Virus record (IMG/VR): IMGVR_UViG_3300037961_003161
Span: 1 to 61,892 of that record
Length of the DNA stretch: 61,892 nt
Direction: 5' to 3' (one strand)
Source: a virus
Taxonomy: Duplodnaviria; Caudoviricetes
The position numbers were made by a program, and so were the translations under genes. A model generated the notes under the pieces. It was not told where the DNA came from. It was given only the letters and a program-made list of their open reading frames with translations, and made no database searches. Shown one piece after another: positions 1,659 to 50,230 of the stretch (its first letter is position 1; every line of letters begins with the position of its first letter).

Positions 1659-2408
1659 TTACAGATAATCAACCACTTGCGAGTGTTTTACATTAGCTTT
1701 TAGCTTGTCAACAGCTTGCTTTTTTAACTGAGAAACTCTAACATAAGAGCTAATACCACCTATGTTTAAATACTTAGCTATTTGCTTAGCTGATTGTTTA
1801 TTACAGCCAAGTCCATAACTTAGTCTTATTACATGATACTCTTTGTCAGTTAAATATTTTAACATTAAAGTGTTTAACTGTTGAAATAATATTTCTTTCT
1901 TCATAGGATTTTCGCTTTCGTCTTCATATTGTGGTAGCATATCATCTTCAACTTCTTGATCTATACTTTGAAACATTGAGTTGTAAAACATAGCTTGCTT
2001 TTCAGGATCATCTTCAAAGCCTTTACGTATGTCATTTAACTTATGCTCAGGTATACGCATTGGTGATCTATTAGCATCAGTACCACGACGTATTGCACCG
2101 CGTACGCGTTTAGCTAAATAAGATTTTATAGTCTTTTCAGGATCGCTAGATTCTAGTATTTGTTTCCACTGTATTTTGTCAACAGCTTGTATTAAACCTA
2201 TTTTACCCATGCTCATTAAATCTTGTATATTCATTATTCCTGACGCTGAATCAGATGTAGAAAATTTACGAGCTATGTTTTCTACTAATGGTAGAAATTT
2301 TATTATTAGCTCGTCTCTAGTATACTCGTCCCAAAACTTACCTTCTGGTTGTGACGCTTTAATATCATCTTTATATCTTTTATAATTATAGTTATTATAG
2401 TTTTTCAT
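1659..2408 (-). CDS. Phage sigma70-family RNA polymerase sigma factor
   Basis: Region 2 (LPLVENIARKF...DLMSMGKIGLIQAVDK), region 3 (MRIPEH), region 4 (LTDKEYHVIRLSYGL...IAKYL...RVSQLKKQAVDKLK). Confidence 0.9.
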   Translation of the reverse strand: MKNYNNYNYKRYKDDIKASQPEGKFWDEYTRDELIIKFLPLVENIARKFSTSDSASGIMNIQDLMSMGKIGLIQAVDKIQWKQILESSDPEKTIKSYLAKRVRGAIRRGTDANRSPMRIPEHKLNDIRKGFEDDPEKQAMFYNSMFQSIDQEVEDDMLPQYEDESENPMKKEILFQQLNTLMLKYLTDKEYHVIRLSYGLGCNKQSAKQIAKYLNIGGISSYVRVSQLKKQAVDKLKANVKHSQVVDYL

Positions 2409-4437: not shown

Positions 4438-4439
4438 AG

Positions 4440-4691: not shown

Positions 4692-4701
4692 AATTTTAAT
4701 T

Positions 4702-6842: not shown

Positions 6843-7161
6843 ATATATCTAGTTTAGTTATTAATTCTTTTGTGTATTTAGCTACAAGCTTTTGTTTGTA
6901 GTTCATAGCTAATTCTAGTTCAAATTTTTTCTTCATAGCATAAGGCTCAACGTAAGACTTGTGATCACTTTTATCTTCAGGTTTTGCATTTTTATACTGA
7001 TTGTAATGAGTAATATAATCATAAAAGTTTTGACTCGTACCTACATATTTATTTATTTCTTGATAAATATCAAATATTTCTTGTGCTTTTTCTTCTAAGT
7101 AATTGTCAGCTTTACGCTGTAATTGCTTTTCTATTTCATTAGTGTCTTTCATAATATTCAA
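6835..7161 (-). CDS. Hypothetical protein
   Basis: Coupled ORF. Confidence 0.65.
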   Translation of the reverse strand: MNIMKDTNEIEKQLQRKADNYLEEKAQEIFDIYQEINKYVGTSQNFYDYITHYNQYKNAKPEDKSDHKSYVEPYAMKKKFELELAMNYKQKLVAKYTKELITKLDIFD

Positions 7162-7336
7162 TTTTATTTAAGTTAATTCTTGAGTCAGCGTGAGACATCC
7201 ACTCACAATCATCTAGTTTATGACCTTGATCTACCATAATATCTTCAAAGTCTTCTGTTTGTAGCTCTTTGTCAGTATCTATAATATACTGATATACTAA
7301 GCCGTCTTCAAAGTCTAATACTGTTAATGTATTCAT
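7139..7336 (-). CDS. Hypothetical acidic protein (start moved to MNTLT)
   Basis: AT-rich leader before ATG at 7336; the longer ORF would run into the structured RNA. Confidence 0.65.
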   Translation of the reverse strand: MNTLTVLDFEDGLVYQYIIDTDKELQTEDFEDIMVDQGHKLDDCEWMSHADSRINLNKIEYYERH

Positions 7337-7362
7337 AGTATTTAATTTAATAGTTAATAAAA

Positions 7363-7484
7363 ACGAGGTGGCCAAGTGAGTACACACAGTCAGGCTGGGG
7401 CCTCACCTGTTAGTTCCATTTTACCGTGCAAGATGACTACCAGCGAACACTGACTTGTCTACACGTCTCACGCGCCACTCTCGT
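7363..7484 (-). ncRNA. Putative rod-shaped structured RNA (~120 nt)
   Basis: Nested pairings ACGAG/CTCGT, GTGGC/GCCAC, GTGAG/CTCAC, AGTCAG/CTGACT, GCTGG/CCAGC in a GC-rich intergenic gap; strand inferred from context. Confidence 0.55.
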
Positions 7485-7493
7485 ATGCTATTG

Positions 7494-7652
7494 TGCCCAA
7501 GGGTGGAGTCGAACCACCAATTATCCACGTTGCTCTGCACACGCAACAAGGCTCTATTTTTGTTCTGTTCCAAAGAGGTCCACTAAATCGCTCTATCCCC
7601 CTGAAGAACTTCCCACATTACCATAGATTTACTGTTCACCTTGTACTTGGGC
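7494..7652 (-). ncRNA. tRNA-like RNA (159 nt) with ~85-nt insertion at the D-loop position
   Basis: Acceptor GCCCAAG/CTTGGGC+A, U8-A9, perfect T arm GGTGG-TTCGACT-CCACC, CAAGG/CCTTG stem, GTTGC/GCAAC hairpin. Confidence 0.7.
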
Positions 7653-7658
7653 TATATT

Positions 7659-7874
7659 TTATCTAAGACATGTACCGTAACCTTTACGTCTACTTGCCTT
7701 GTAAATAGCTGCAGATACTGACTGCGACACTATTTGTATTGTGTTACCTGTCTTGTGGTTAGTAATCGGAGCTGATGCTACACGCTCTACACCACTACAG
7801 CTTACACACGTTTTGTACCCGTATTTTTGTCTTACTGGGTGTACGGGCTCACCACATCTACAATAATTTGCCAT
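7659..7874 (-). CDS. DksA/TraR-like C4 zinc-finger protein
   Basis: CRCGEPVHPVR...KTCVSC. Confidence 0.55.
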   Translation of the reverse strand: MANYCRCGEPVHPVRQKYGYKTCVSCSGVERVASAPITNHKTGNTIQIVSQSVSAAIYKASRRKGYGTCLR

Positions 7875-7894
7875 AGTTAATAAGCTTTTGTCAT

Positions 7895-7929
7895 ATATAA
7901 TATCTGACGGTGGTCGTTTTTTATTTGTG
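7895..7929 (-). promoter_or_regulatory. Early promoter copy (CACAAA-N18-AGATATTATA)
   Basis: Bipartite motif, 18-nt spacer. Confidence 0.8.
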
Positions 7930-7988
7930 ATGGTGCCACCACTCGAAAAACATGTATAGCAAAACTGCTACAAATATTAGTATAGTAG

Positions 7989-8063
7989 TTAGCACTCGTC
8001 TTGTCTTTTTATAGCGCAGAATAAATACCATACGCTAGTTAATACTAAAGCCCACTCAAACAT
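7989..8063 (-). CDS. 24-aa hydrophobic microprotein
   Basis: MFEWALVLTSVWYLFCAIKRQDEC; TAATG coupling to the upstream ORF. Confidence 0.45.
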   Translation of the reverse strand: MFEWALVLTSVWYLFCAIKRQDEC

Positions 8064-8173
8064 TATCTAAATAAGTTAATTGCTATTAGTGATATAATAC
8101 ATAAGAACCCTAAGTACATTACTATATGTTCTACAACTTCAAAGAAGTCTGGTTTGTTACGGTATGCTTTCAT
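8063..8173 (-). CDS. 36-aa single-pass membrane microprotein
   Basis: MKAYRNKPDFFEVVEHIVMYLGFLCIISLIAINLFR. Confidence 0.5.
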   Translation of the reverse strand: MKAYRNKPDFFEVVEHIVMYLGFLCIISLIAINLFR

Positions 8174-8177
8174 AATA

Positions 8178-8291
8178 TTATTTTAAAGTCATGGTTAATA
8201 ATTCAAACTCATCTCTAGTAATTAAACCTTCTAGCAAAGCTATATAGTATTTAGTTACGTTTCTACCTGTTATTTTGTTAGTTACAATCAT
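8178..8291 (-). CDS. 37-aa hypothetical protein
   Basis: MIVTNKITGRNVTKYYIALLEGLITRDEFELLTMTLK; fills the gap exactly. Confidence 0.55.
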   Translation of the reverse strand: MIVTNKITGRNVTKYYIALLEGLITRDEFELLTMTLK

Positions 8292-8293
8292 AG

Positions 8294-8527
8294 TTAATCT
8301 CCTAGTTCTATTAATTGGTTAATATAATCTTTTCTGTACTGCGCGTTATGTGGTGCGTTCTCGTTCCAGAATATACATCTGTCACTTGTTTTAGCAAACA
8401 TTGCTTTAAGCTCATCTTGTATAAACTGATAGTGAGTTCTGCCTTGTTGCCACGCTCTGTGGTCATCACTCATGTTGTGAAAGTGGTCGTGTACTTGTAT
8501 TTCCTGTGCTAATTCTTCTCTTGACAT
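8294..8527 (-). CDS. Hypothetical protein
   Basis: HD.F..MSDD.R.W..G motif. Confidence 0.7.
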   Translation of the reverse strand: MSREELAQEIQVHDHFHNMSDDHRAWQQGRTHYQFIQDELKAMFAKTSDRCIFWNENAPHNAQYRKDYINQLIELGD

Positions 8528-8528
8528 A

Positions 8529-8618
8529 TTAGTATTTTTTACCGTTAATAATTCTGTGTGAGTTTACTCTTTGTTGTCTCACTTGTCTTTTTACTTTAAT
8601 AGTTCTAAATGTTGACAT
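8529..8618 (-). CDS. 29-aa basic microprotein
   Basis: MSTFRTIKVKRQVRQQRVNSHRIINGKKY; fills the gap exactly. Confidence 0.5.
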   Translation of the reverse strand: MSTFRTIKVKRQVRQQRVNSHRIINGKKY

Positions 8619-8621
8619 ATC

Positions 8622-8825
8622 TTACTTATTTATTCTGTTATATAATTCTTCTATTACAAAGGCAAACATTTCTTCTTTCTCATCAAAGAATTTATTGTCT
8701 GACTCTTCATAGTCTCCGTACTCGTACATGTAATCTACTAGTACTTCATCTATTTTATCTATTATAGTATCGACTGTTTCATCTACTACTTTATTTATAA
8801 TTTTCTGAGGTGTTAATTTTGACAT
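8622..8825 (-). CDS. Hypothetical acidic protein
   Basis: Packed ORF. Confidence 0.65.
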   Translation of the reverse strand: MSKLTPQKIINKVVDETVDTIIDKIDEVLVDYMYEYGDYEESDNKFFDEKEEMFAFVIEELYNRINK

Positions 8826-8829
8826 AGTA

Positions 8830-9054
8830 TTATCTTCTTTGAGTATAGTTTAAATCTTTATTTAGTGTGTGCAAGTCAAAGTTGTGAGATTTGAGTGCAT
8901 TGTAATTTATATAACAATAACCTTTGTGGTTAAACTGGTCAGACAGTGATATTTCTTCGTAATACTTAGGCAGTTGGTGTAACTGAAATGGTATATATTT
9001 AGTATTGTTGATAGTAATAATATTAGTTGACGAGTCGATTTTTAAAGTTCGCAT
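8830..9054 (-). CDS. Hypothetical protein
   Basis: ORF directly after an early promoter. Confidence 0.65.
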   Translation of the reverse strand: MRTLKIDSSTNIITINNTKYIPFQLHQLPKYYEEISLSDQFNHKGYCYINYNALKSHNFDLHTLNKDLNYTQRR

Positions 9055-9077
9055 AGTATATAATTTATTTGTTACAG

Positions 9078-9112
9078 TTATATTATCTGTAGGTGATTTA
9101 ATTTAATTTGTG
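9078..9112 (-). promoter_or_regulatory. Early promoter copy (CACAAA-N18-AGATAATATA)
   Basis: Bipartite motif, 18-nt spacer. Confidence 0.8.
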
Positions 9113-9436
9113 TTAGTATATTTCTTCTATTTGTAATTCAGAAGTAATACTGTTATTTGTTACATAGAAGCTCCACTCGTCTGTAAATTCTACTAATGGT
9201 ATAGATATTTTGTTACTTGACATTAGAGTATCGCCTTGGTAGTTAACACCGTAGAATTTGTAGTCACAAGATATACTTTCTACTTGAGGCAAAGAACCTA
9301 CATTTACTAAGTATATTTCTTCTGCCTGAGTATTAATTTTCAAGTGTGGATTAAGTGACGTTGGGTAATATACTTCCTCTTTAGTGCATGAGGTCATACC
9401 TAGTATGACACTCACACCTAATAATATTTTCTTCAT
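9113..9436 (-). CDS. Putative lipoprotein
   Basis: MKKILLGVSVILGMTSC signal peptide with lipobox. Confidence 0.7.
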   Translation of the reverse strand: MKKILLGVSVILGMTSCTKEEVYYPTSLNPHLKINTQAEEIYLVNVGSLPQVESISCDYKFYGVNYQGDTLMSSNKISIPLVEFTDEWSFYVTNNSITSELQIEEIY

Positions 9437-9438
9437 GA

Positions 9439-9678
9439 TTACTCAGTAATTTCAGATAAGTTACGAGCGAAGGCAGGCACCGCATTACTATTTGTATAGT
9501 TACCATATTGTTGGAAGCAAGGCATTGACTCAAATCTTTCTTGGAATGTAGAGTAGATTTCATCATGGTTATACTTGTAAGTTATACCTTTTTTGTTAGT
9601 AAAAGTGATTGTAGTATTAGTGCCAATTAGAGTTTTTCTAATAACAAATCTTTTAGTAGTTAAAGTGTTAGTTGACAT
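9439..9678 (-). CDS. Hypothetical early protein, paralog A
   Basis: Clearly homologous to 10102..10335 (TLTTKRFV.RK.LIG.NT.ITFTNKK...YGNYTNSN..P..AR). Confidence 0.8.
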   Translation of the reverse strand: MSTNTLTTKRFVIRKTLIGTNTTITFTNKKGITYKYNHDEIYSTFQERFESMPCFQQYGNYTNSNAVPAFARNLSEITE

Positions 9679-9716
9679 AGTATTTAATTTAAGTTAATTA
9701 TTTATTTTAGTTACAG

Positions 9717-9751
9717 TTTTAATATCTTTTAGTGAACTGTTTTATTTTGTG
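9717..9751 (-). promoter_or_regulatory. Early promoter copy (CACAAA-N18-AGATATTAAA)
   Basis: Bipartite motif, 18-nt spacer. Confidence 0.8.
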
Positions 9752-9844
9752 TAAAGTATATGTTTTGTTTAGTGAATAATTATAGTTGTAGAGTACTGCA
9801 CTATTTCTCTTTGTTCACAAGTACAATTATAATTAGTACAAAGT

Positions 9845-9890
9845 GTGACACAAGGTAGTTAAGTAAAGTATAGTAGTAGGCTCTTGTCAC
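9845..9890. repeat. Dyad element copy 2, GTGACA-N34-TGTCAC
   Basis: Same arms and AT-rich core as 3019 and 10572. Confidence 0.7.
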
Positions 9891-9964
9891 TATTTTTTGA
9901 CAGGTAATAGACCTTTTACTTTCATTACTTCATATTTTACTTTTAATGATTGAAATGTAGACAT
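9890..9964 (-). CDS. 24-aa basic microprotein
   Basis: MSTFQSLKVKYEVMKVKGLLPVKK; directly after an early promoter; shares MSTF...KVK with 8529..8618. Confidence 0.5.
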   Translation of the reverse strand: MSTFQSLKVKYEVMKVKGLLPVKK

Positions 9965-9989
9965 AGTATTATATTTTATTTGGTTACAG

Positions 9990-10024
9990 TTTTAATATCT
10001 GTAGGTGGACTAAATGAATTTGTG
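9990..10024 (-). promoter_or_regulatory. Early promoter copy (CACAAA-N18-AGATATTAAA)
   Basis: Bipartite motif, 18-nt spacer. Confidence 0.8.
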
Positions 10025-10026
10025 TT

Positions 10027-10077
10027 GGTGGCGAGTGCTATACACGTCGTGCTATACACGCCTTCGGCGTTGCCGCC
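10027..10077. repeat. GC-rich element with 12-bp direct repeat and hairpin
   Basis: GTGCTATACACG at 10035 and 10049; ACGCC-TTC-GGCGT hairpin at 10058-10070. Confidence 0.6.
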
Positions 10078-10101
10078 TCAGCGCGTTGCATTTAGTAGAG
10101 A

Positions 10102-10335
10102 TTATTTAGTCTCTACTTGGTGCTCTCTTGCCCATGTTGGTAAGTTGTTACTGTTAGTATAGTTACCGTACTTGTGCCAGCACTCCATGTTATTTAGTCT
10201 TTCTTGATTGACAGAGTATACTGCGTCGTGGTCGTAAGTATAAGTTTCATTTTTCTTGTTAGTGAATGTAATGATAGTGTTGTTACCTATTAGTGACTTT
10301 CTCATTACAAATCTTTTAGTAGTTAATGTTGACAT
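10102..10335 (-). CDS. Hypothetical early protein, paralog B
   Basis: Homologous to 9439..9678. Confidence 0.8.
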   Translation of the reverse strand: MSTLTTKRFVMRKSLIGNNTIITFTNKKNETYTYDHDAVYSVNQERLNNMECWHKYGNYTNSNNLPTWAREHQVETK

Positions 10336-10367
10336 GTTATTAAAATTTAATTAGTTATTGTTTACAT

Positions 10368-10402
10368 TTATATTATCTGTTGTAAGACTTATTAAGTTTG
10401 TG
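10368..10402 (-). promoter_or_regulatory. Early promoter copy (CACAAA-N18-AGATAATATA)
   Basis: Bipartite motif, 18-nt spacer. Confidence 0.8.
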
Positions 10403-10435
10403 TGTTACAGTAGTTACTTAATAAATAACTTACAA

Positions 10436-10470
10436 ATATAATATCTGAAAACTTTCGAGGTAAATTTGTG
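10436..10470 (-). promoter_or_regulatory. Early promoter copy (CACAAA-N18-AGATATTATA)
   Basis: Bipartite motif, 18-nt spacer; first of the tandem pair at the strand switch. Confidence 0.8.
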
Positions 10471-19396: not shown

Positions 19397-19628
19397 AGCA
19401 GTTGAAGAGCTTATAAAAGTTGCTCAAGAACAAATTATTACTCATAGCGAAGACGATGTATCTGCAGATAGATTAAAAAATGCTGCAGCAACAAAAAAGC
19501 TAGCTATATTCGATGCTTTTGAAATACTTAATCGTATACAAGAAGAAGAAAATATATTAGAAGGTAAAGAGCCTGAAGATAAAAAAGAAAGAGTATTTAA
19601 AGGCTTTGCCGAAGGAAGATCTAAATAA
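19350..19628 (+). CDS. Probable terminase small subunit
   Basis: Small helical protein coupled (TAATG) to terL. Confidence 0.55.
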   Translation: MNIKETKKSIIQAGHKAVEELIKVAQEQIITHSEDDVSADRLKNAAATKKLAIFDAFEILNRIQEEENILEGKEPEDKKERVFKGFAEGRSK

Positions 19629-35365: not shown

Positions 35366-38300
35366 ATGAATATTACAAGTTCAAGTGGTTTAACCATATA
35401 TAATGTTACACAGTTAGGTACTGCTGGAGGCACAGGAGTTACAACTATGTTTGAAATATCACCTAACTACGGGTTTTTTATAGCTGCCTCTCAATTTACT
35501 GTAACTAACTTAGAAGATTATCCAGAAGTAGCGGGAATTACGTTTTCAGATTCATCGTCTGCTAATACACCTGGAAATGTTGTAAACGTTGTTGTAACTT
35601 GGGATGGAACTACTGACATTACTGAAGATTATTTTTTAAACTTAAACATAAGCGTAGACGACGCTTCGATATATGACTCTAGCACTACCTTAATAGATTT
35701 TTATTTAGTAGAAAATTACGATGTTAACATAGGCAATGGAACTGTTACTTTATCTGTGTCAGAAGTTAATGACGGTAGCTTAGTTCCAAATGACTTAGTA
35801 ATAACTTCTATAACAGGCGCATATAGGTTCCAAGGTTGGGTTGGAAGCTCTAATACTGTAGCTGTAGCTGATGTTACTATTTCCGTGACAGAAGGAGTTA
35901 GATATATTAATAGTTCTTCTGAAACAGAAAACCTATTTTTTAATCAGTTTATAGATCAGCCAGACACTTCTCAAGGTCAGTTTTCTTTTGAATATTTAAG
36001 TAAAACTTTAGACTCTTTTGGCTTACCTAAAACAGTTACATATAGAATATTCTTTACTAGAGCTGAGTTTGCTCAAGAAGACATTGGCACACAAATTGAA
36101 TACTCAACAGTTGGTGTTACTGATTACTACGCAAATTTTGTTTATGATACCGTAACGCTTACAGAAGCTGCTGGCAATGAGTATAATTTAATTTTTAACA
36201 CTAACATACCTTTTTATTCTAACACTTTTAGTTTAAGCTTTTCTGCTACTTGGGCTGAAACTGGAGACACATCACCTAGTATTGATGGTTTGCAAGTTTC
36301 TTATCCTATAGATTATAGCGCTATACCAGATGGTACAGCTATAAGGTATAATACAGTAACTTTAAAAGATATTTATTACCCTACTATAACAAGAGACACT
36401 GTAACCTTACAGCAGGTTGAAGACGCTTATGTTAATTTAACAATACAACTAAATCCGCCGGGAGAATATACTTCAAGTGATAGTCCTGCGTCTTTTCAAT
36501 ATGGTAGCTCTGCTAAAGTCATAAGCTACAACAACGGTAATGATCCTATTTATGAAAATGTTTTCTTAGCTAACAGCCCAGGCAACAATGTAAATGTTTA
36601 TGACGATCCATACACTTCTTCTACGCAGTATTATTTAAGAGCAGAAGTAAATGAAACTATTACGTTAGAAATGCTTAACAACGGAACCGTAGGATTTGAA
36701 GTAACTCAAGATCAATACCCTATCGACGCTTTTCCAGCTAAAGACTGGTGTGACTTTAGTACTACTCAATGGTATGAATCTTCGCCCGGAGTTTATAAAA
36801 GAGGATTTTACATTAGAAACCAAGATGCTGTGAACTTTCAAGGAACACACGTTAACACTACTGATAGAACTGCAACGTTTACTTTAACGCATCCTCTTGG
36901 AACAGCATCAAGCTCTGTTACTTTAACTCAAGACGATAGATACACAATATCTGAAGCTGGTGGGTCTGTTAAAATTGTAGAGTACGACTCTGGTATTTTC
37001 GCGCCATCAGAAGACAGTCAATTTAGCTCTGTTGGTTACTCTAACGCGTCTGATCCAGGCAACGTGAATTTTACAGCTACTGCTACTAGTGGATTTGGTA
37101 CTACTCAATATAAGGTTAGAATAAAATTTGATAACCTTGATTTTGATTTTAACTTATATAATAATGTAACAACTAGTCAAGACGCGCCAACGTTTAAGCA
37201 GTACCCTACGCCAAGCTATGCTGGCCAACCAAGTGGTCAATTAATACCTAACGACAGTCCTGGAGGCCCTCCATACTATGTAGATTTTGATGATGATAGT
37301 TTTTTTACAAACTACACGCAAGAACTTATATATAACGAAAACTATGACGCTTCTAATCCTGACGAAGATCACCATTATACATTTGTATTTACGTTAAAAA
37401 ACAACGATACTTACAGTAATAGACATGTTACTTGGAACTTCACGCATCCTAAAAATGAAGCCGCAGGACCACTTAGCGTAAACTACGACGGAACTGCAGC
37501 TACAGACGTTTCTTTTAAAATACTTCAGCCAGCTTTTGATCAACTAGATGCTAATATTAATGATCCAGACTCAGGTCAACCGCTAGGTATTTACAGCCAG
37601 AGTTATCCTTATGTAATAAGTTCAGAAGCTCAAACAGTAACTATTAGTCTAGCTTATTCAGGTACGACACTACCTACTATAGGCCTTTACTCTGACGCTG
37701 GTGTTTATACGCCTTTAGCTCAAAGCACCGTTGTTAATGGAATTAGTTATGTTGTTAATAACGATGCTCAGATAGTAGAAGGTGGAACAACTAGAACTAT
37801 TACAGTTACACTTACTGGAAATACAGATTCTGAAGATAGAGAAAACACTTTAGGTTTTTGGCACGCTAATTCTACTGCAGCTATAGACTCACCAAACGAT
37901 GCTATAAAAATTACGCAAGAAGGTGTAGAGTTTGACGAGGTTGATCATGATATTATATTATATACTACGCAGCCTTACGAGCAAAGCACTGGCGGTAATA
38001 CAATAACTCTTTTAGTAAAAGTTTTAAACTATACCGCTGAAAACTATGCTAATTCTGTTGCTAACACAGATAACTCTTTAGATCCTGTAGTAGAAGTTTA
38101 TAGATGGAACGGACCTAACGTTCAAGACGGTATATATTACGATACTGAGGGCAACTATGATAATGGTACTTTAACTTCTCCAACAGTATTAAGTGTTACT
38201 GCTAACCCACTATACAACTCTTCTGGCCCATTATCAACGTTTGGCGGAGTTCAGGTAAGCTACACTCATACAGTTCAAGTTTCTTATACAGAAAATAATC

Positions 38301-40189
38301 TTGATCAAAACGTATACTACGCTGTAAGAGCTAGGCATTTTTATAACAGCACTTTCGACGAAGATGATTATGTAATATTTACAATACCTTCTCAGTCAGT
38401 AATTGAGTTTACCGGTGTTACAAAAGACAACTCTCCAGAAGACATAATGGGGCTTGTAAATAATTATAAATTTTGCAATTTATCTTCTGGCACTGACTTA
38501 TTAAAAATTGATATTAAAGTAAACAACTATGAGTACAATATAAGCGATAATGACGATTTTCCTAGTTTTATTTCAAGTTATTCTCCTTATTTTGTGCTTA
38601 GGTTTTTAGACGCTAGCTATCTTGATTCTTCTGGAAATGTTGTTAGTGGCAGCGAAAAGGTTTGGAAAAATCCTGACACCCCTACTTATAGCCTTCTAAA
38701 TCCTCCTTACTCAGACCCTGCTAAACACTTACCTATAACATTTTTTGATATTAACGCAGAGAATAGTGAGTGGGTTGCAGAAGCTCCAACAGCAATACCA
38801 ACGTCTATAGGTAGTATTAGCAACCCTGTTGATTTTATAAACAATATAGAAATACAGCCAGCTACTTATCCTGATAAAAAGTTTAGTGTACTTTTAAATG
38901 TTAGCGGTCAAAGTACTGGTGGAGTAGTGAATTCTTTTATTGGTGTTTGGAGCTACGACTCAATGCCGTTTACTAATATTTATGACTTATCACAGCCTTT
39001 TCAATTCATTAATGCAGCTAACGGAACACAGCCTTATGAAAACACTATAAGCAGGCCTACCAACACTATTCTTGCAGGGTTCCAGCAGTCATATTTTAAC
39101 CACATGGTTGAGAATCCACAGCAATGGCAAGGCTCTACAGATGGCTATAGCATCTCAAGCTTATATGGCCTTACAAACCTTATTAAGGATAAGTTACTTC
39201 AAATAAACTCAAGCTACGATGGTTGGGACTGGAATAGAGGCGATACTACCTTTGACGCAGAAAGCAATCATATCAGTTTGGCTTACATAAACTTGTTTTC
39301 TAATCAGTCTGCCTTTGGTATCTCTGGTGGTAATCAAATGTCAGTCAATGGAAAAGTAGTGTATATTTCTTTCACAATATCAAACTTTGAGTATATTGGC
39401 GACTGGGAGTACGAAAATGCTTTTGCCGTTGGTTTACCATATTTTGTAACTAATGGTAGATATTCATCAGCATGGTACGATGAAAATCTCTTGTCCATAA
39501 ACGCTGGTGAAATGAGCACGCTTGCAGTTGAGCGACTACAAGCTAGAGGGTCAAACCCTAATGGTCGTTATTTTGGTAAAATAAAAATAAACCAACTTAA
39601 CAATATTACTTTTGCTACTAAATTAGGTTGTAGATATACTCTTAGTGATTTAAAAATATTTGCGGCTGACGAAGAGCTAAAAATAAAGCCTGGCGCAGGA
39701 AATATTTTTGACAGAGCTCCTGACGATGTTTTAAAAATAATACATCAATCTACTGGCTCTTCGCTTAGATTCTCTGATGCTCAATATTTAGGCGGTTGTT
39801 TTTCACCTTTCTTAGCTACACAGGTAAACGTGTTTGGTGAGCAGCATGTAATTTCTTCAAACTCAGAAGAGTCTACTATTAGTGGTTGGCAACCTTCATA
39901 CCAAGTAATAAATTTTGAAAACTACACAGGTACAAACCCTGTTCTTAAAGCTTGGGACGGTAGTAACTCTAGCAGCTTAGTACAAGACGCAATGGTTGAA
40001 TGGACTACGTTTAATTCAGCAGGAGGAAACACATTGTCATGTGACATACAGTTTGAAAACAACACAACGGGCGCACAAAGAACTTTAACTATAGGTCTTT
40101 ACAATGGAACTCCTTCTACTAGTACCCAAGCTCCTGTAGACACAATTTTAATAACACAACCATCGGTTGATTTAGACGAAGTATTGTAA
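35366..40189 (+). CDS. Large tail/adhesin protein with BACON/Ig-like repeats
   Basis: Repeated N....R....T...(V/I).(L/I).Q units; T/S/N/Y-rich. Confidence 0.65.
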   Translation: MNITSSSGLTIYNVTQLGTAGGTGVTTMFEISPNYGFFIAASQFTVTNLEDYPEVAGITFSDSSSANTPGNVVNVVVTWDGTTDITEDYFLNLNISVDDASIYDSSTTLIDFYLVENYDVNIGNGTVTLSVSEVNDGSLVPNDLVITSITGAYRFQGWVGSSNTVAVADVTISVTEGVRYINSSSETENLFFNQFIDQPDTSQGQFSFEYLSKTLDSFGLPKTVTYRIFFTRAEFAQEDIGTQIEYSTVGVTDYYANFVYDTVTLTEAAGNEYNLIFNTNIPFYSNTFSLSFSATWAETGDTSPSIDGLQVSYPIDYSAIPDGTAIRYNTVTLKDIYYPTITRDTVTLQQVEDAYVNLTIQLNPPGEYTSSDSPASFQYGSSAKVISYNNGNDPIYENVFLANSPGNNVNVYDDPYTSSTQYYLRAEVNETITLEMLNNGTVGFEVTQDQYPIDAFPAKDWCDFSTTQWYESSPGVYKRGFYIRNQDAVNFQGTHVNTTDRTATFTLTHPLGTASSSVTLTQDDRYTISEAGGSVKIVEYDSGIFAPSEDSQFSSVGYSNASDPGNVNFTATATSGFGTTQYKVRIKFDNLDFDFNLYNNVTTSQDAPTFKQYPTPSYAGQPSGQLIPNDSPGGPPYYVDFDDDSFFTNYTQELIYNENYDASNPDEDHHYTFVFTLKNNDTYSNRHVTWNFTHPKNEAAGPLSVNYDGTAATDVSFKILQPAFDQLDANINDPDSGQPLGIYSQSYPYVISSEAQTVTISLAYSGTTLPTIGLYSDAGVYTPLAQSTVVNGISYVVNNDAQIVEGGTTRTITVTLTGNTDSEDRENTLGFWHANSTAAIDSPNDAIKITQEGVEFDEVDHDIILYTTQPYEQSTGGNTITLLVKVLNYTAENYANSVANTDNSLDPVVEVYRWNGPNVQDGIYYDTEGNYDNGTLTSPTVLSVTANPLYNSSGPLSTFGGVQVSYTHTVQVSYTENNLDQNVYYAVRARHFYNSTFDEDDYVIFTIPSQSVIEFTGVTKDNSPEDIMGLVNNYKFCNLSSGTDLLKIDIKVNNYEYNISDNDDFPSFISSYSPYFVLRFLDASYLDSSGNVVSGSEKVWKNPDTPTYSLLNPPYSDPAKHLPITFFDINAENSEWVAEAPTAIPTSIGSISNPVDFINNIEIQPATYPDKKFSVLLNVSGQSTGGVVNSFIGVWSYDSMPFTNIYDLSQPFQFINAANGTQPYENTISRPTNTILAGFQQSYFNHMVENPQQWQGSTDGYSISSLYGLTNLIKDKLLQINSSYDGWDWNRGDTTFDAESNHISLAYINLFSNQSAFGISGGNQMSVNGKVVYISFTISNFEYIGDWEYENAFAVGLPYFVTNGRYSSAWYDENLLSINAGEMSTLAVERLQARGSNPNGRYFGKIKINQLNNITFATKLGCRYTLSDLKIFAADEELKIKPGAGNIFDRAPDDVLKIIHQSTGSSLRFSDAQYLGGCFSPFLATQVNVFGEQHVISSNSEESTISGWQPSYQVINFENYTGTNPVLKAWDGSNSSSLVQDAMVEWTTFNSAGGNTLSCDIQFENNTTGAQRTLTIGLYNGTPSTSTQAPVDTILITQPSVDLDEVL

Positions 40190-42823: not shown

Positions 42824-45800
42824 ATGTTTGAACTTAACGGTGATGTTTTAACAGTAGAAGATATACAAGCTGCAGCTGATAGCTTAAACATGTCTTATGA
42901 TGACGCATTTGCTAAGCTAACAAAGCAAGGTTTAATACAACCTACGTCTACAAATAATATGGATCTTGATACGGATCAACAGCCTAAAAAAACAGTAAAG
43001 CTTTGGGGTGGTTTAGTGCCTATAGAGGTTGATGAAGAAAAAGTAGATCCAGATGACTTACCAGCTTACAAACAAATAATTAATGCTTTTACAGGGGCAC
43101 CGGAAAGAGCTTTTAATAAATTTGAAAACTTTAGAGTAGCACTTGCTGATCCAATACAAGACATGTTTGGTGATGAATATGCTACATATTATTTAAAATC
43201 AACAGATTTAGACAAGTCTATACCTTGGATTGCTAATATGATGAAGTTTGACTTTGGTGATTACACGGCCGCAGACCTTGTTGATCCTCAAACAAAAGAA
43301 AGAATTAAATTTAACCAAAAAGCTTACGATGAAAAAGGTGTTGACGCTCCAGAGAATAAAAGGTTTTTTGAGCTTCTTAAAATGCATCGAGAAGGAGGTT
43401 TTGAAAGCGTAATAGCGTTAGCTCCTAATGAAACTTATGAAGAAGCTACTAGAACTTTCTCTGAAGAACTTCAGTTTCAAAAAGGAATTATTGATGAAAG
43501 AGTAAAAAACTTTAAGCCTATAAAAGATCCAAACGTTACAGGTTTTACTGACGCTATGAAAAAAGGTGAGCTTGACGACATGGTTTCTACAGGTTTAAGC
43601 TTTGTAACAGACATGACTATAGATGTTGTTGCAGCTATAGCCACTAGAGGTATTTCTATGGCTGGGACTATGTTTGGTATGGGTTGGAATATGTTTAATG
43701 ATGAAAAGTCAAAAGCTCTTTATGGTGAAGATGATCCTGATAGAGTAAAAAAACTTATAGAAAATAACGAAGAAGAACTTGCTATTCCCGCTACTTTAAG
43801 CGCTCTTGGTTTTGCTTTAGAAAGAATTGGTATGAAGCAGGTTGTAGGCGCTATAATGAAAAGAGCGGCTACTATGTCTGTGCCTGCTGTAATGTTAAAG
43901 TCTGGTAGTGTTGAAGGTGGTACAGAATATATGCAAGGCTTAATAGAAGAGTTTAATAGACAGTTAGGCTCTCAAGGAAACGACAAAGACGTAGAAAAAG
44001 CTACTGAAAAAACTATAGAGTTTGCTACTTCTGACCGAGCTTTAGATAATTTGTTTGCTGGTATTATTGGTGGTAGTGGTTTAGCTGGCGGTAGCGCTAC
44101 AGTTCAAGCGGCTTTTAGAGCAGACGAAACTAGTAATCAGTTTGTAAACGAACAATTAAAAAATTTAAAATACCTTCAAGAAGCTGAGTTTAGAGCTACT
44201 TCAAGAAGAAAGAAAAAACAATTCCGAGAAGCTATAAATCAAACTACAAACGACTTAGTATATTTTTTAAAGAAAAATAGAGATAAAACTGAATACTTAA
44301 GTAAAGAACAGTCAGAATCCTTAGAAAACTTAATAGGTGAAAAAAGAAAAGCAACTAAAGAGTTAAAAGATTTAAGAAAGCTATTTAAAAAAGGTATAAT
44401 AAGCAAAGAAGCCTATGACCAAGCTGTTCTTGATAAGAGACAAGAGGTTTTAGATTTTGACGCTAAAATGCAAGAAATAAAGAACGATGCTAATATGAAG
44501 CTCGTTATGCAAAATTTAGACGGTGGCGGAAAGTTAGTTAAAGATATTAAAAACATAAATCAAAAAGTATACAAAACTGAAGCTGAGTTTTTTAAAGCTA
44601 TGTTAAATGAATATTTAGCGATGGGTAAAACCGTAAAAGACTTTGAAGCAGACACTAAAGGATTTAGTATTCCTGGTATAAAAATTGGTAACACCATGTT
44701 GATCAATGCTGAAGAAGCTGCTAGAACAAATAAATTTGGTGTTGGTGTACATGAAGTAGCTCACATGGCGCTAAAAGCTAAAATACAAACTAAAGACGGT
44801 ACTGGTAATTTAAGTGTTGATGGCGAGCGAATAGTAAAACAGTTTATAGAAGATCTTAGCTCTAAGGAAAAAGAATACATAGAAGATCAGCTTGAGAGTG
44901 GTAAATACAAAGTAAATGCAGATGGCACTGCTAAACAGTTTAAAGAGTATGGAGAAGAATATTTAGCTTTTTATGCTCAGGGGGCTAGAGAAGGTAAATT
45001 TACTAAAAACGCTATACAAAAAGCTGGTAACAATATAGCTCAAATATTTAGAACTGAAACAGAGTTTGAAAGCTTTAATTTTGAAAACGCTGATCAAACT
45101 AGAGCTTTTTTAAATGCCTTAGTTGAAGATTCTAAAGAAGGTATATATAGACAAGAGTTTGTTGAAATGGCTAGAGAAGGAGCTACTATAGAGGACTCTA
45201 GTGTTAAAAAGTCTATGACTGCTAAGGAAAAAGCTACAGTTGAAAAAAATATAAATAAACTTGGAAAAGAAGGTTTGCTTGGTGAAAACTTTGTTGAACA
45301 AGCTGAAAAGCTTGGTAAAGGCATGGGCAAAAAACTGTTTGAAGCAGAGTTTGACGATATATACAAGAGAATACAAAATGAAGGTTATCTTGATAAATTA
45401 ATAGCGGCTCAATACAAAGCAAAAACAGTACCTAGAAACTTTGTTAAGAAAGTGTACTCAGAACTAACTTCGCATGCTAAGAATTTTAATCCAGAAATAA
45501 ATGACAGTTATTTTATTTGGCTAAACTCACAAATAGGAAATAAAGCAACGCAAGTATATAACAGAGAATATGAGGTTGATCAAACAACCGCTGGTAGAGC
45601 TAGAAACATAGGCGAGACAACACAAGAAGGCGAAATTAAAGTACAAGTCGCTGCAGATACAGATACTGCCTTAAAAGCGCTAGAAACAGAAGATTTATCT
45701 ATAGTGGGTCAAACTAAAAAAGAAGCTCAAGAAACTAGAAGCAAAGTTTCTAAGTTTAGAAAGCAGCTTGGTTTTGAAACTGGTGGTGAGTTTTATAATA

Positions 45801-48800
45801 GAGTTTTACAGTCTGCTAAAAAAAGCTTGTTGCTAGCTTATAATAAAACAAAAAACATAACAGATAAGTCAGAGCGAGCTGTAGCTATACGTGAACTTAT
45901 ACGTAAAGAGTATTTTACTAAAGGTCTTACCAGTGATTTATTCAAGCCGTTAAAGAATTTTTTAGGAACAGCACAATACCTCAACAATTTAGTAGAATAT
46001 AAAGAGGCTTTTATTAACGCTATGTCTACAGCTGATCTTGTTCAAATGGAACGTAAAGTCGCTGAGCACGAAAGAGTGTTTACTATATTTGACAAAAAGC
46101 TTACTAAAATAGAAGAAGTACAAGACGCTGTAAATAGAGACTTACTGCCTCCTGATGCAATTAACGCTATAAAAAAAGGTCAAGCAGTAAACCTTTACAA
46201 AAAGCGTATGCCTACAGACTCTGAAATCGTAGCGTTTGCAAATCAACCCGCCATTAATCCTGTAACAGGTCAAAGATCTGGTTTAAAAGGTACTAGAAAA
46301 GATGGTTTTGCTAAAGCTATGGCTAACAGCTTGTTGCTTGATGCTGTTATGCAGGTTAGGCAAAGCGCTGAAGTTGTTGAAGCCTTACAAGACGATGCTG
46401 TTGCGCTAGGTGATGAAGCTACACTAGCAGGTAAAATAGGTAGAGAGGTTGATGTTAAGTTTAGTAGAGAGGCTAAAGAAATTGTTGAAGCTACTAAACC
46501 CATAACTAAAACTATGGGTGCTAATCAAATACGAAAAGCAGGTATTGCCATTGACGAAATAGTAAGAACTATAGAAAAAGAAGGCGTAGACAACTCTGTT
46601 GTAAGCATGTTTGAAGATATTAAGTCTTTAATACAACAAGGATTATCTGTTCAAGAAGTTGCTGAAATAGCTTGGAATCGTAACGGTTATTTATTTGAAG
46701 ATGCTTCTAAATATGGTGTTGAAGGCAGCTTATTAACAGGCGTTTTTGACAAAAAACACTTAGCTCAAATACTAGCTAATGCTAAATCAATAACTGAAGC
46801 TCAAATAAAACAAATAGGATTTATCGATTCTGTTAATTTCTTACAAAAACTAAAAAGCCCTAATGCTGTAATCGACTGGCTAAAAACATATAGTAAATCA
46901 CTTAGAACAGCTAAAGTTATATACAACGGACAAACTATTACTACTAACGAACAAGTTCACGACTTGTTAATAGCTCCTTTAGGTATAGAAGGCTTTAGCG
47001 TTAGAAAAACAGGAAGAGGTAACACTAAAATAGTTTACAACGGTAAAGATATAAATACTTACAAGAAGATAATTGAAATAAAACAAGATGCTAGAGGATC
47101 TTATAACACTATATCTCAAGAAGCTAAATCTGCCATAAAAGCAGTTGTTGATATTGTTAAGTCAGATAAAAGCAAAGAAATTAAAAAGTCTTTAATTAAA
47201 CTTATGGGCGTTGACCAGGTTGGCACATTAAGAAAAATGGCAAAGCCTGGTATAATGTTTTGGAATTTTAAAGGTGAAACAATATTAGATCACAGGCCTA
47301 CTATAAACGACATTACTAAAAAAATATACGAAACTATAAATAATCCTACAAGCCAAGCCGTGCAAGAGCTTGAGAGTTATTTAAACAATACTTACGTAAA
47401 TTTAATACCTAAATCTTTAGACACTGAAATTACAAAAGCAGGCTTTAAGAATAAAGGTGGTATGGAGATTATGTCTAATTTTACGCTTAAAAACTTAATA
47501 GCTGATGAAATTTATGACAACTTAAGTAACACAAGTGTTAATTTTACAAAAGAAAATAATAGTATACAAAAGTCTTTTCAGTTTGCAAGGTCTGCTAAAA
47601 AACCAACTAAAGGAATTAGTATTTTAGATTTTGATGATACGTTAGCTACAAGCAAGTCACTAGTAAAATTTACAAAGCCAGACGGTACAGAAGGTACTTT
47701 AACACCAGAGCAATACGCTGCAACTTATGAAGACTTAACAGACTTAGGTTATAAATTTGATTTCTCTGAGTTTAGCAAAGTTGTTGATGGTAAACCTGCG
47801 CCTTTGTTGAACAAAGCTAAAAAGTTAGCTGGTAAGTTTGGTACAGATAACATGTTTGTATTAACTGCTAGGCCTGCTGACTCAGCTCCTGCTATAAAAG
47901 CTTTTTTAGATCAAAACGGTTTGAATATACCTTTAAAAAATATAACTGGTTTAGGTAACTCAACAGCTGAAGCTAAAGCTTTGTGGGTTGCTGGTAAGGC
48001 TGCTGACGGTTATAATGACTTTTATTTTGCAGATGACGCGCTTAAAAATGTGCAAGCTGTAAAAAATATGCTAGATCAGTTTGACGTTAAATCAAAAGTT
48101 CAGCAAGCTAAAGTTAATTTTAGTAGAACAATGAACGACGAGTTTAATCAAATGCTTGAGCGTACTAAAGGCGTGCCGTTTGATGAGAGTTTTTCAAGAG
48201 CTAGAGCTTTAAAGCTTGGTAAAAATAAAGGTAAATTTCAAATATTTGTACCTCCTGCAGCTGATGATTTTGAAGGACTACTATATTACTTTGTAGGTAA
48301 AGGTGAGCAAGGAAATAAAGACTTAGAGTTTTTTAAGCAATCTGTAATAGATCCGTTTTCAAGAGCTTACACAGAGCTTGATCAGTCAAGGCAAACAATA
48401 ATAAATGATTGGGATAGATTAAGAAAAAATCATAAAGAAGTAACTAAAAAGCTAGGTGACATGATGCCTGCTAGTGAGTTTACTTTTGACAATGCTATTA
48501 GAGTTTATTTATACAATAAAGCTGGTCATACTGTGCCTGGTTTGTCAGAGCAAGAGGTTAGCAATATGGTTGAAAGAGTTGAGACAGATAAAGCGCTTTT
48601 AGCATTTGCAGAAAACTTACAGTCTATATTACAGCTAGATGATGTTTATGTAAAGCCAAACGAGTACTGGATAGCTGGATCTACCTCTGCTGACGTACAT
48701 GAGGTTTCAGAAAGAATACGTAGGGCTGAGTTTTTAGGCGAGTGGATTGAAAATAAAAACGAAATATTCAACGAGGCTAACTTAAATAAAATAGAGGCCA

Positions 48801-50230
48801 CTTATGGTAGTAAATTTAGATCTGCGCTTGAAGATGTGTTATACCGTATGGAAACTGGTAGAACAAGATCTGAGGGCAGTAAAGACGCTATAGCTAGTAA
48901 ATGGATGCGTTGGCTAAACAACTCTGTTGGAGCTATAATGTTTATTAACACTAAATCTGCTTTACTACAGACTATATCGATGGTAAACTACGTTAACTAC
49001 GTAGATAATAATCCTCTTCAAGCGGCTAGAGCTTTTGCTAATCAAAAACAATATTGGTCTGACTTTAGCATGATATTTAATTCTGACTTTTTAAAGCAAA
49101 GACGTAAAGGTTTAAAGACAGATGTACAGACCGCTGAGATAGCCTCCGCTGTCGCTAACGCTACTAATAAAGCACAAGCTGCTGTAGCATATCTACTTAA
49201 AAAAGGATTTTTACCAACACAAATGGCTGATAGCTTTGCTATCGCCGCGGGCGGTGCCACGTTCTATAGAAACAGAATAAAAACCTACTTAAACGAAGGA
49301 TTAAGTCAAAAAGAAGCAGAAGAAAAAGCATTTAATGATTTTAGAAACTCTACAGAAGAATCACAACAGTCTGCAAGACCAGATCGTATATCTCAACAGC
49401 AAGTTTCTAACGCTGGTCGTTTGCTTTTAAACTTCCAAAACTATCCAATGCAACAAGCTAGATTATTTAAAAAAGCTATTCTTGGATTATCTAGAGGCAC
49501 TGGTGATAAAAAACAACATTTATCTCGTATTGCTTTTTATGGGTTTGCTCAAAACATTATATTCTTAAGCTTACAAAACGCTTTATTTGCAATGCTTTTT
49601 GATAGTGATGATGAAGAGAAAAAGCAAGAGCTTCTTGATACTAAAACAAGTCGTATATTAAATGGTATGGTTGATACTATGCTAAGAGGTTCTGGTATCG
49701 CGGGAGGTGTTATTGCTACTGCTAAAAACACTATACTAAGAGCTATACAAGAGCTTGACAAGAAAGGTAGAGCTAATGAGGCGAACGTAATATTAGAAGC
49801 TACAAATCTATCGCCAGCTATAGGATCTAAACTTAGAAAAATAAACAAAGGTTTTAGAACTTATAAGTATAATAAAGACGCTATTAATGAAATGAGTAAG
49901 CTCAACATTAATAACCCACTATGGACAACTGCTGCGCCTGTAATAGAAGGCGTTACTAACGCTCCAACCGATAGAGCTATTAGACTAATAAATCAAGTTA
50001 GAGAAGGATTTAATACTGATAACACTGTTGCTCAAAGAATGTCTTTGTTGTTAGGATTTAGTCCTTACGAAATAGGCGTTGATCCAAACAAAGAAGTAAA
50101 AGAAGCTAAAAAAAGAGGTCAAGAAAAAGGTAAAGCAAAGAAAAAACAATGTAGAGCTTTTACTGCCTCAGGAAAACCTTGTTCAAACATGACAACTAAC
50201 GAGTCTGGCCTTTGTTATGCTCACGAGTAA
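42824..50230 (+). CDS. Giant multidomain internal virion (polyvalent) protein: zincin, sigma2-like, HAD, C-terminal Zn finger
   Basis: HEVAH; NFNPE..DSYFIWLN; ILDFDDT..LTAR..K..FADD; C-x9-C-x10-C-x2-H. Confidence 0.75.
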   Translation: MFELNGDVLTVEDIQAAADSLNMSYDDAFAKLTKQGLIQPTSTNNMDLDTDQQPKKTVKLWGGLVPIEVDEEKVDPDDLPAYKQIINAFTGAPERAFNKFENFRVALADPIQDMFGDEYATYYLKSTDLDKSIPWIANMMKFDFGDYTAADLVDPQTKERIKFNQKAYDEKGVDAPENKRFFELLKMHREGGFESVIALAPNETYEEATRTFSEELQFQKGIIDERVKNFKPIKDPNVTGFTDAMKKGELDDMVSTGLSFVTDMTIDVVAAIATRGISMAGTMFGMGWNMFNDEKSKALYGEDDPDRVKKLIENNEEELAIPATLSALGFALERIGMKQVVGAIMKRAATMSVPAVMLKSGSVEGGTEYMQGLIEEFNRQLGSQGNDKDVEKATEKTIEFATSDRALDNLFAGIIGGSGLAGGSATVQAAFRADETSNQFVNEQLKNLKYLQEAEFRATSRRKKKQFREAINQTTNDLVYFLKKNRDKTEYLSKEQSESLENLIGEKRKATKELKDLRKLFKKGIISKEAYDQAVLDKRQEVLDFDAKMQEIKNDANMKLVMQNLDGGGKLVKDIKNINQKVYKTEAEFFKAMLNEYLAMGKTVKDFEADTKGFSIPGIKIGNTMLINAEEAARTNKFGVGVHEVAHMALKAKIQTKDGTGNLSVDGERIVKQFIEDLSSKEKEYIEDQLESGKYKVNADGTAKQFKEYGEEYLAFYAQGAREGKFTKNAIQKAGNNIAQIFRTETEFESFNFENADQTRAFLNALVEDSKEGIYRQEFVEMAREGATIEDSSVKKSMTAKEKATVEKNINKLGKEGLLGENFVEQAEKLGKGMGKKLFEAEFDDIYKRIQNEGYLDKLIAAQYKAKTVPRNFVKKVYSELTSHAKNFNPEINDSYFIWLNSQIGNKATQVYNREYEVDQTTAGRARNIGETTQEGEIKVQVAADTDTALKALETEDLSIVGQTKKEAQETRSKVSKFRKQLGFETGGEFYNRVLQSAKKSLLLAYNKTKNITDKSERAVAIRELIRKEYFTKGLTSDLFKPLKNFLGTAQYLNNLVEYKEAFINAMSTADLVQMERKVAEHERVFTIFDKKLTKIEEVQDAVNRDLLPPDAINAIKKGQAVNLYKKRMPTDSEIVAFANQPAINPVTGQRSGLKGTRKDGFAKAMANSLLLDAVMQVRQSAEVVEALQDDAVALGDEATLAGKIGREVDVKFSREAKEIVEATKPITKTMGANQIRKAGIAIDEIVRTIEKEGVDNSVVSMFEDIKSLIQQGLSVQEVAEIAWNRNGYLFEDASKYGVEGSLLTGVFDKKHLAQILANAKSITEAQIKQIGFIDSVNFLQKLKSPNAVIDWLKTYSKSLRTAKVIYNGQTITTNEQVHDLLIAPLGIEGFSVRKTGRGNTKIVYNGKDINTYKKIIEIKQDARGSYNTISQEAKSAIKAVVDIVKSDKSKEIKKSLIKLMGVDQVGTLRKMAKPGIMFWNFKGETILDHRPTINDITKKIYETINNPTSQAVQELESYLNNTYVNLIPKSLDTEITKAGFKNKGGMEIMSNFTLKNLIADEIYDNLSNTSVNFTKENNSIQKSFQFARSAKKPTKGISILDFDDTLATSKSLVKFTKPDGTEGTLTPEQYAATYEDLTDLGYKFDFSEFSKVVDGKPAPLLNKAKKLAGKFGTDNMFVLTARPADSAPAIKAFLDQNGLNIPLKNITGLGNSTAEAKALWVAGKAADGYNDFYFADDALKNVQAVKNMLDQFDVKSKVQQAKVNFSRTMNDEFNQMLERTKGVPFDESFSRARALKLGKNKGKFQIFVPPAADDFEGLLYYFVGKGEQGNKDLEFFKQSVIDPFSRAYTELDQSRQTIINDWDRLRKNHKEVTKKLGDMMPASEFTFDNAIRVYLYNKAGHTVPGLSEQEVSNMVERVETDKALLAFAENLQSILQLDDVYVKPNEYWIAGSTSADVHEVSERIRRAEFLGEWIENKNEIFNEANLNKIEATYGSKFRSALEDVLYRMETGRTRSEGSKDAIASKWMRWLNNSVGAIMFINTKSALLQTISMVNYVNYVDNNPLQAARAFANQKQYWSDFSMIFNSDFLKQRRKGLKTDVQTAEIASAVANATNKAQAAVAYLLKKGFLPTQMADSFAIAAGGATFYRNRIKTYLNEGLSQKEAEEKAFNDFRNSTEESQQSARPDRISQQQVSNAGRLLLNFQNYPMQQARLFKKAILGLSRGTGDKKQHLSRIAFYGFAQNIIFLSLQNALFAMLFDSDDEEKKQELLDTKTSRILNGMVDTMLRGSGIAGGVIATAKNTILRAIQELDKKGRANEANVILEATNLSPAIGSKLRKINKGFRTYKYNKDAINEMSKLNINNPLWTTAAPVIEGVTNAPTDRAIRLINQVREGFNTDNTVAQRMSLLLGFSPYEIGVDPNKEVKEAKKRGQEKGKAKKKQCRAFTASGKPCSNMTTNESGLCYAHE

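Follow-up and report, generated by a model that had tools for sequence, protein, structure and literature searches.

A predicted sigma region 2-like domain inside a giant, probably packaged protein of an uncultured marine flavobacterial podophage

Can a sigma-type domain reach the host cell together with the incoming phage DNA? The question is raised by a giant open reading frame (ORF) in the IMG/VR virus record IMGVR_UViG_3300037961_003161, all 61,892 nucleotides of which were analysed and are referred to here as the window. Phage early transcription is known to start from the host holoenzyme or from an injected polymerase (as in N4, crassviruses and phiKZ-like phages). Part of the giant ORF resembles region 2 of sigma factors (sigma-2), the part of sigma which clamps the beta-prime coiled-coil of RNA polymerase (RNAP) and touches the -10 element. 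The giant protein comes from an uncultured marine podophage of flavobacteria, and the features on which the question turns are the following:

42824..50230, + strand: giant multi-domain ORF encoding P0001, 2,468 amino acids (ORF list and translation), the final large gene of the structural block
45272..45589, + strand: sigma-2-like helical domain, residues 817-922 (about 105 residues)
45386..45565, + strand: peptide YLDKLIAAQY...QVYNR, residues 855-914, the core of this domain and the equivalent of sigma regions 2.1-2.4 in the register given by hhalign

Our preferred reading, which we hold to be about evenly balanced between right and wrong, is that P0001 is a probably packaged and injected multi-domain protein with a sigma-2-type RNAP-docking domain. 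The resemblance to sigma region 2 on which it builds exceeds chance.

The sigma region 2-like domain

The peptide which the first-pass annotation of this DNA had singled out as sigma-like is present in the sequence as given (nt 45386-45565, within its interval 45340-45570); the start of that interval, 45340, lies out of the coding frame of the giant ORF. A module covering residues 593-1199 was gathered from 103 viral and metagenomic loci, and alignments were made of residues 817-1199 (A3, 90 sequences) and of residues 817-922 (A4, 86 sequences). In both, the domain carries a moderately conserved motif, ..GYLD.LI..K.K.....F...V..EL.....NFNPE....LFG.I..QI, whose proline is at least 90% conserved. 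Subfamilies of the domain are marked by LFGWINSQ, ITVGEFLMAN or GLSGFINQR.

The AlphaFold2 model of 383 residues built on A3, with a predicted local distance difference test (pLDDT) score of 80.4, divides into a helical part (model residues 1-100), an acidic, disordered linker (103-142) and an alpha/beta domain modelled with confidence (160-383). Modelled alone on A4 (residues 817-922, 106 residues), the domain reached a pLDDT of 89.5 and a predicted template modelling score of 0.82, and the predicted model has the helices of regions 1.2/2.1-2.4 that make up the sigma-2 fold. When the 383-residue model was compared by VIA-align, a method independent of Foldseek, with 48,161 PDB representative chains, the best 35 rows comprised 25 chains titled sigma factor, 8 chains of RNAP initiation complexes and 2 unrelated chains, with 19 different sigma families ahead of the first unrelated one. 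The fold shared between the predicted model and sigma-2 structures extends over 76-93 residues (root-mean-square deviation 2.4-4.6). Foldseek gave sigma-type structures in its first 13 listed rows, the top match being SigI6 (E 0.38, probability 0.91), while the E. coli sigmaE region 2 entries had template modelling scores of 0.45-0.61 at 19-22% identity. Viral sigma factors stood out weakly in BFVD (probability 0.3-0.75), and the sole lead for the domain in the ESM Atlas (0.76) was a viral zinc metalloprotease cluster.

Profile comparison leads to the same region. An alignment of genuine sigma region 2 segments (A6, 27 aligned of 30, from five bacterial genomes and representing groups 1, 3 and 4) was compared with A4 by hhalign, which placed residues 869-916 on regions 2.2-2.4 over 47 columns (score 25.3, P 4.7e-4). 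The register is the one read by eye in the first-pass annotation, with RNFVKK on DLVQE, NFNPE on the F-D loop and LFGW on F.TW. None of 42 controls (2 reversed and 40 column-shuffled) reached the score of 25.3, their maximum being 11.8. The earlier claim of a sigma region 2-like domain inside the giant ORF is borne out by the structure models, this alignment and its controls. Since the models are confident and the profile match is in register with them, the fold is supported and distant homology with sigma-2 is plausible; we consider it likely that the domain as modelled is sigma-2-like in fold.

Several results weigh against a sigma-type domain with a role in transcription. Pfam detected no Sigma70 family in P0001 at E ≤1, and the 25 families most often matched by the 90 homologues include none. 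Searched against all six frames of the phage, PF04542 (Sigma70_r2) gave no match at E ≤10, and the domain does not reach the gathering score of this family. No sigma-4 was seen either, the Pfam scans of P0001 (E ≤1) and of the 90 homologues containing no helix-turn-helix (HTH) or Sigma70_r4 family. Searches of PDB sequences with profiles A3 and A4 found no sigma, and those with P0001, A3, A4 and the alignment of the zincin-like module (A2) gave no relevant match. A profile search of 1.84 billion protein representatives does not reach ordinary sigma factors, its 289 matches at E ≤1e-3 (clusters at 50% identity) being the domain family itself. The hhalign match to A6 has a probability of just 32.5%, which falls to 0.2-0.3% against the phage's own sigma factor, for which the alignment is poorly diverse. 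The Foldseek check proposed in the first-pass annotation does rank sigma-type structures first, in agreement with VIA-align, but none of them is significant, every E-value being at least 0.38. The family occurs in no isolated phage, and the domain drops to 22% identity between phages which are otherwise 75-88% identical, which is odd for a binder of a conserved host surface.

Some of these results would suit a convergent helical bundle which only looks like sigma-2 and serves packing, ejection or channel building, without any tie to transcription. Both the lack of a sigma match at the level of hidden Markov models and the low conservation of the domain (mean column identity 25% in A4) are in keeping with such a look-alike. 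It is less easily reconciled with 19 sigma families preceding the first unrelated chain among 48,161, with a profile-profile match which falls in the same register as the structural one and beats all 42 controls, or with the conserved F..V..EL....NFNPE....LFGWI positions, which sit on the equivalents of regions 2.2-2.3. We regard the look-alike as a minority possibility, though one to be taken seriously; if it were true, the finding would be a new conserved domain architecture of unknown role.

Modules and family of the giant protein

The domain is one of several modules in P0001:

44600..45271, + strand: zincin-like module, HEVAH at residues 643-647 (nt 44750-44764) and a downstream Glu, at motif level and without a Pfam match
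45578..45697, + strand: acidic, predicted-disordered linker, residues 919-958 (about 40 residues), with conserved TKEGE and LETEDxS
45749..46420, + strand: basic alpha/beta domain, residues 976-1199, pLDDT about 90, the most conserved part of the module
46640..46669, + strand: GLSVQEVAEI, residues 1273-1282, in a block covered by about half of the homologues
47627..47641, + strand: DxDxT in ILDFDDTLA, residues 1602-1606, HAD-phosphatase-like by motif alone, Pfam giving no HAD family
48101..50143, + strand: most conserved C-terminal block, residues about 1760-2440, covered by 106-121 alignments

The order of modules, which the family conserves, is a zincin-like HExxH...E, the sigma-2-like domain, the acidic linker, the basic alpha/beta domain, a variable region, the HAD-like motif and the C-terminal block. 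The HExxH which the first-pass annotation had placed in the same chain is there, as HEVAH at residue 643, and in an alignment of 17 sequences the H, E and H of the motif and the downstream E (A2 positions 51, 52, 55 and 120) each reach at least 90% conservation. The module matched neither the named LPD or MPTase families in Pfam at E ≤1 nor any PDB sequence. The DxDxT block is kept in 102-116 of 120 homologues. In the C-terminal block, hydropathy indicates a hydrophobic segment at residues 2241-2259, and there is a weak match to DUF5763 (PF19067; E 0.0055, under the cut-off).

The acidic linker has a pLDDT below 50 at model residues 103-138 and 140-142 and a net charge of -5 (residues 919-959), and its T, G, D and S are at least 90% conserved. 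The region after it (residues 960-1199) has a net charge of +8; within the basic domain, KGQAVNLY is invariant in the 17-sequence alignment and RSGLKGTRK largely invariant in the 90-sequence alignment. None of the 50 listed VIA-align rows falls on the basic domain, all being on residues 1-125 of the 383-residue model, and the ESM Atlas gave no usable match for residues 960-1199. This domain does not look like sigma-4. The peptide GLSVQEVAEI, previously put forward as a region 4-like fragment, does not hold up as one: among 120 family proteins, a regular expression for it matches at that place in P0001 alone. When the whole module was compared with full-length sigma factors by hhalign, the alignment continued collinearly through sigma-4, yet its probability was 4% and the sigma-2 part accounted for all of its score; it was rejected as evidence.

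One explanation makes fuller use of these parts. P0001 could be an ejected starter of transcription in which, next to a sigma-2-only module, the linker acts as a sigma finger and the basic domain reads DNA, host core RNAP being assembled on the entering end of the genome. Early transcription, and perhaps transcription-driven entry of the DNA, would then begin without host sigma. We think this unlikely; if true, it would be a third phage route to transcription start, besides the host holoenzyme and the injected polymerase.

P0001 belongs to a large and mostly metagenomic family: of 8,000 candidates scored, at least 2,427 were homologues from metagenomes, very few of which carry a name. No PHROGs family was found for P0001, and a tblastn search with it against 50,697 phage records gave no match. 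Two conserved blocks (residues about 600-1200 and about 1600-2400) stand out in the family, and P0001 contains at least five separately conserved blocks, that is, many unrelated domains in one very large polypeptide. Among the 150 domain carriers listed out of the 289 matches, 93 have at least 1,500 residues and the median length is 2,125, while short stand-alone forms of the module are rare (8 proteins of 166-749 residues). The domain is embedded in giant proteins and is not a free dissociable subunit of about 20-70 kDa, as would be expected of a sigma factor; its release by cleavage is possible.

Delivery, polymerase and the early-region motif

The virus record (61.9 kb, 35% GC, estimated 95% complete) has a gene order typical of a podophage, in which the terminase and the portal are followed by structural proteins, a 1,778-residue protein, a 1,607-residue ORF, three smaller ORFs and the giant ORF:

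19628-21841: large terminase
21845-24265: portal, then capsid-type and virion structural proteins

In the 1,778-residue protein there is a weak match to PF25729, the C-terminal domain of crassvirus muzzle proteins (E 1.6e-5, slightly short of the cut-off). By terminase, the closest cultured relatives are the Flavobacterium elemoviruses and phages of Cellulophaga, Tenacibaculum and Maribacter (47-64% identity). Elemovirus and MW202828 have giants of 3,694 and 3,859 residues at the same position, the Elemovirus one being annotated as 'structural protein'. In crAss001 virions, cargo and RNAP-associated proteins gp45-gp50 are reported to have been identified by mass spectrometry, and their ejection was proposed (PMC10172136). 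Because the position of its gene matches those of the giant 'structural' genes and of the crassvirus cargo and RNAP genes, P0001 may be read as a packaged and injected 'polyvalent' early effector; gene position and the analogy with crAss001 suggest that it is probably packaged in the virion. BLASTP and hidden Markov model searches of P0001 against the MW202828 and elemoA giants gave nothing beyond a faint match of the HExxH region under --max. These unrelated giants carry HExxH motifs of their own, HEFGH at residues 1615 and 2500 in MW202828 (L002) and HEIFH at residue 1543 in elemoA (L004), which, at the level of motifs, fits zincin modules being a shared feature of such giant proteins.

The first-pass annotation had set P0001 apart from the virion RNAPs (vRNAPs) on the ground that it lacks DxDxD. 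This is correct in that no conserved DxDxD exists; taken literally it is not, there being one DLDTD at residue 47, in the poorly conserved N-terminus. DxDxD occurs within the first 150 residues of 3 of 120 P0001 homologues. No polymerase match was found in PDB sequence searches with P0001 or its 1,607-residue neighbour. P0001 shows neither the conserved DxDxD nor the similarity to solved vRNAPs that mark the crAss/N4 type, and the view that the giant protein is not a virion RNAP stands, no such signature being present in it or in the large neighbour. The neighbour (35366-40189) was also considered as a vRNAP and rejected, its DFDDD at residue 640 lying in an N/T/S-rich, fibre-like stretch and the protein having no homologue in four related contigs. 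Those contigs share genes of 70-88% identity with the window; encoded on the + strand, N/T/S-rich, of beta type and without a Pfam, PHROG or PDB match, this ORF is probably a hypervariable fibre or receptor-binding protein.

In the absence of a virion RNAP signature in the window, the phage most likely depends on host RNAP for its early transcription, and an RNAP-docking module in an early-arriving protein is therefore plausible. According to our preferred reading, nt 45272-45589 would encode a diverged sigma-2-type domain built into the 2,468-residue protein, which would be packaged and injected as a polyvalent early effector. The sigma-2-like domain would then most likely dock on host core RNAP during genome entry, where it could either claim the polymerase for the DNA being injected or take the place of host sigma; contacts with nucleic acid would probably come from the basic domain downstream. 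For a predicted complex of the domain (A4) with residues 1-450 of RPOC_FLAJ1 the scores were 0.00 and 0.01, the mark being 0.32, and these values have no bearing either way on binding.

Docking could also serve host shut-off, the domain being a decoy which initiates nothing and silences host transcription, either by filling the sigma site of core RNAP or by binding up a host sigma partner. A sigma-2 fold without sigma-4 speaks for this, as does the fast change of the sequence between close phages, which a protein engaged in conflict would be expected to show, and RNAP-modifying domains are carried by injected polyvalent proteins (PMC7824862). Against it, no phage RNAP was found, so that expression of the phage genes seems to require host RNAP, and the conservation of the linker and the basic domain hints at a role larger than that of a plug. 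We consider the decoy quite improbable.

The proposal of the first-pass annotation ties the domain to a repeated motif of the early region. A virion-delivered sigma would send host core RNAP to CACAAA-N18-AGATA, the HExxH protease would free the module, and the free-standing sigma factor of the phage would take over:

1659..2408, - strand: free-standing phage sigma factor, 249 residues (Pfam Sigma70_r4 8.2e-6, r2 1.5e-3)
6846..10470, - strand: seven CACAAA-N18-AGATA sites, presumed early promoters, ahead of small leftward genes

Both elements are present as described. The free sigma, with its Pfam matches to region 4 and region 2, is very conserved in metagenomes and is named as sigma-70 family by the source databases; a search of genome contigs with it found no related loci. 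Exact copies of CACAAA-N18-AGATA number 7 on the minus strand and 1 on the plus strand; with at most one mismatch the total is 13, against an expectation of 2.8, and the motif is real. Two near-complete relatives keep it in the same early region, G001 with 7 exact sites and G004 with 5 exact sites (9 with N17-19), and 19 sites from the three genomes (window 5953-10470, minus strand; G001:49671-53555; G004:23656-33012) give the extended consensus CACAAA-N18-cAGATA-TATAa-tgtaa. In two further relatives, G003 and G005, the early region is missing (neither GroEL nor sigma gave a match), which makes their zero motif counts uninformative.

It is the co-variation of motif and domain, a check proposed in the first-pass annotation, that fails. 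While the motif is kept in G004, its sigma-2-like domain is identical to that of the window at 21 of 96 aligned residues (22%), beyond detection by tblastn; for comparison, the free sigma is 75% identical, the terminase 83% and a 617-residue protein 88%. Since the motif persists while the domain diverges, it is more likely read by a conserved factor (host holoenzyme or the phage's free sigma). Contrary to the earlier inference, we do not think that the domain sets CACAAA-N18-AGATA specificity. The divergence extends beyond the domain, the giant-protein module being about 31% identical to G004:C1 (about 3574-4752) against 75-88% for other genes, a sign that modules are swapped or that the giant gene evolves very fast.

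The sigma-2-like fold and its register nevertheless agree with the proposal of a virion-delivered sigma, as does the motif, which is real, clustered ahead of small leftward genes and kept in relatives. So does the place of the free sigma gene at the far end of the leftward block headed by motif sites, because of which this factor would not be present at time zero. Besides the lack of co-variation, it is opposed by the bipartite motif itself, whose halves lie 24 bp apart and would need a second DNA-reading domain, none of sigma-4 type having been found. The TATAa.TG half, moreover, partly and in a degenerate way resembles the Bacteroidetes -7 box (TAnnTTTG), so host holoenzyme may suffice. The complete scheme thus appears improbable to us.

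A second repeat, GTAATWATATA, occurs in 3 exact copies against 0.36 expected (1620-1630, minus strand; 10641-10651 and 13093-13103, plus strand). The copy at 10641-10651 ends 3 nt ahead of the ATG at 10655; were it a promoter, its transcript would be leaderless or nearly so. The leftward block by the free sigma (324-3583, minus strand) encodes PDDEXK-like DUF3799, ERF single-strand annealing, HTH and pyrimidine-dimer glycosylase-like proteins. A GroEL-type chaperonin is encoded at 13831-15402 on the plus strand (Cpn60_TCP1, E 1e-50; 75-78% conserved in G001 and G004), and GroEL/GroES pairs are annotated in MW202828 and the elemovirus too.

Comparison with known systems

A sigma-type RNAP-binding domain in a virion protein would, if confirmed, be a strategy intermediate between the use of host holoenzyme and the injection of a polymerase, and it would bring the core of transcription initiation within the repertoire of injected polyvalent effectors. 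No report of a virion-borne or injected sigma domain was found in the open-access literature that was searched. The family is widespread in marine metagenomes (289 clusters at 50% identity for the domain; for the full-length protein, at least 2,427 at 90%), and its carriers infect Flavobacteriia, bacteria with an important part in the breakdown of algal blooms.

The sigma-70 family provides one of the closest likenesses. The domain has the same predicted helical fold as the sigma-2 of ECF (extracytoplasmic function) factors sigmaE, SigW and SigR and of sigma32, SigB and RpoS, with the same order of motifs: a region 2.2 helix, an F/Y-D/N-P loop and an aromatic-bearing region 2.3-2.4 helix. It differs in being embedded at residues 817-922 of a 2,468-residue protein instead of forming a free subunit, in failing Pfam Sigma70_r2, and in being followed not by sigma-3 or sigma-4 but by the acidic linker and then the basic domain, which is larger and unrelated. 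A minimal sigma reduced to sigma-2 has a precedent in the late factor of the T4 gp55 type, a small free protein which is made during infection and works with gp33 and the sliding clamp. The P0001 domain, in contrast, lies inside a presumed virion protein, with no known link to a clamp.

In its overall build P0001 matches the polyvalent proteins of phages and conjugative elements (Iyer et al. 2017), for which the zincin MPTase is named as a hub domain and entry with the DNA and possible self-cleavage, releasing domains, are proposed (PMC5512222). P0001 is likewise giant and has a zincin-like HExxH...E beside unrelated effector domains, but in the main text of that paper the word 'sigma' is not used. 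Injected ART and GNAT domains may act on RNAP according to a related review (PMC7824862). The vRNAPs and cargo proteins of crassviruses and N4-like phages, finally, share with P0001 a very large size and a gene placed after a muzzle-like tail gene in a podophage of Bacteroidota. The difference is that P0001, which has no conserved DxDxD, would recruit the host enzyme instead of acting as a polymerase itself.

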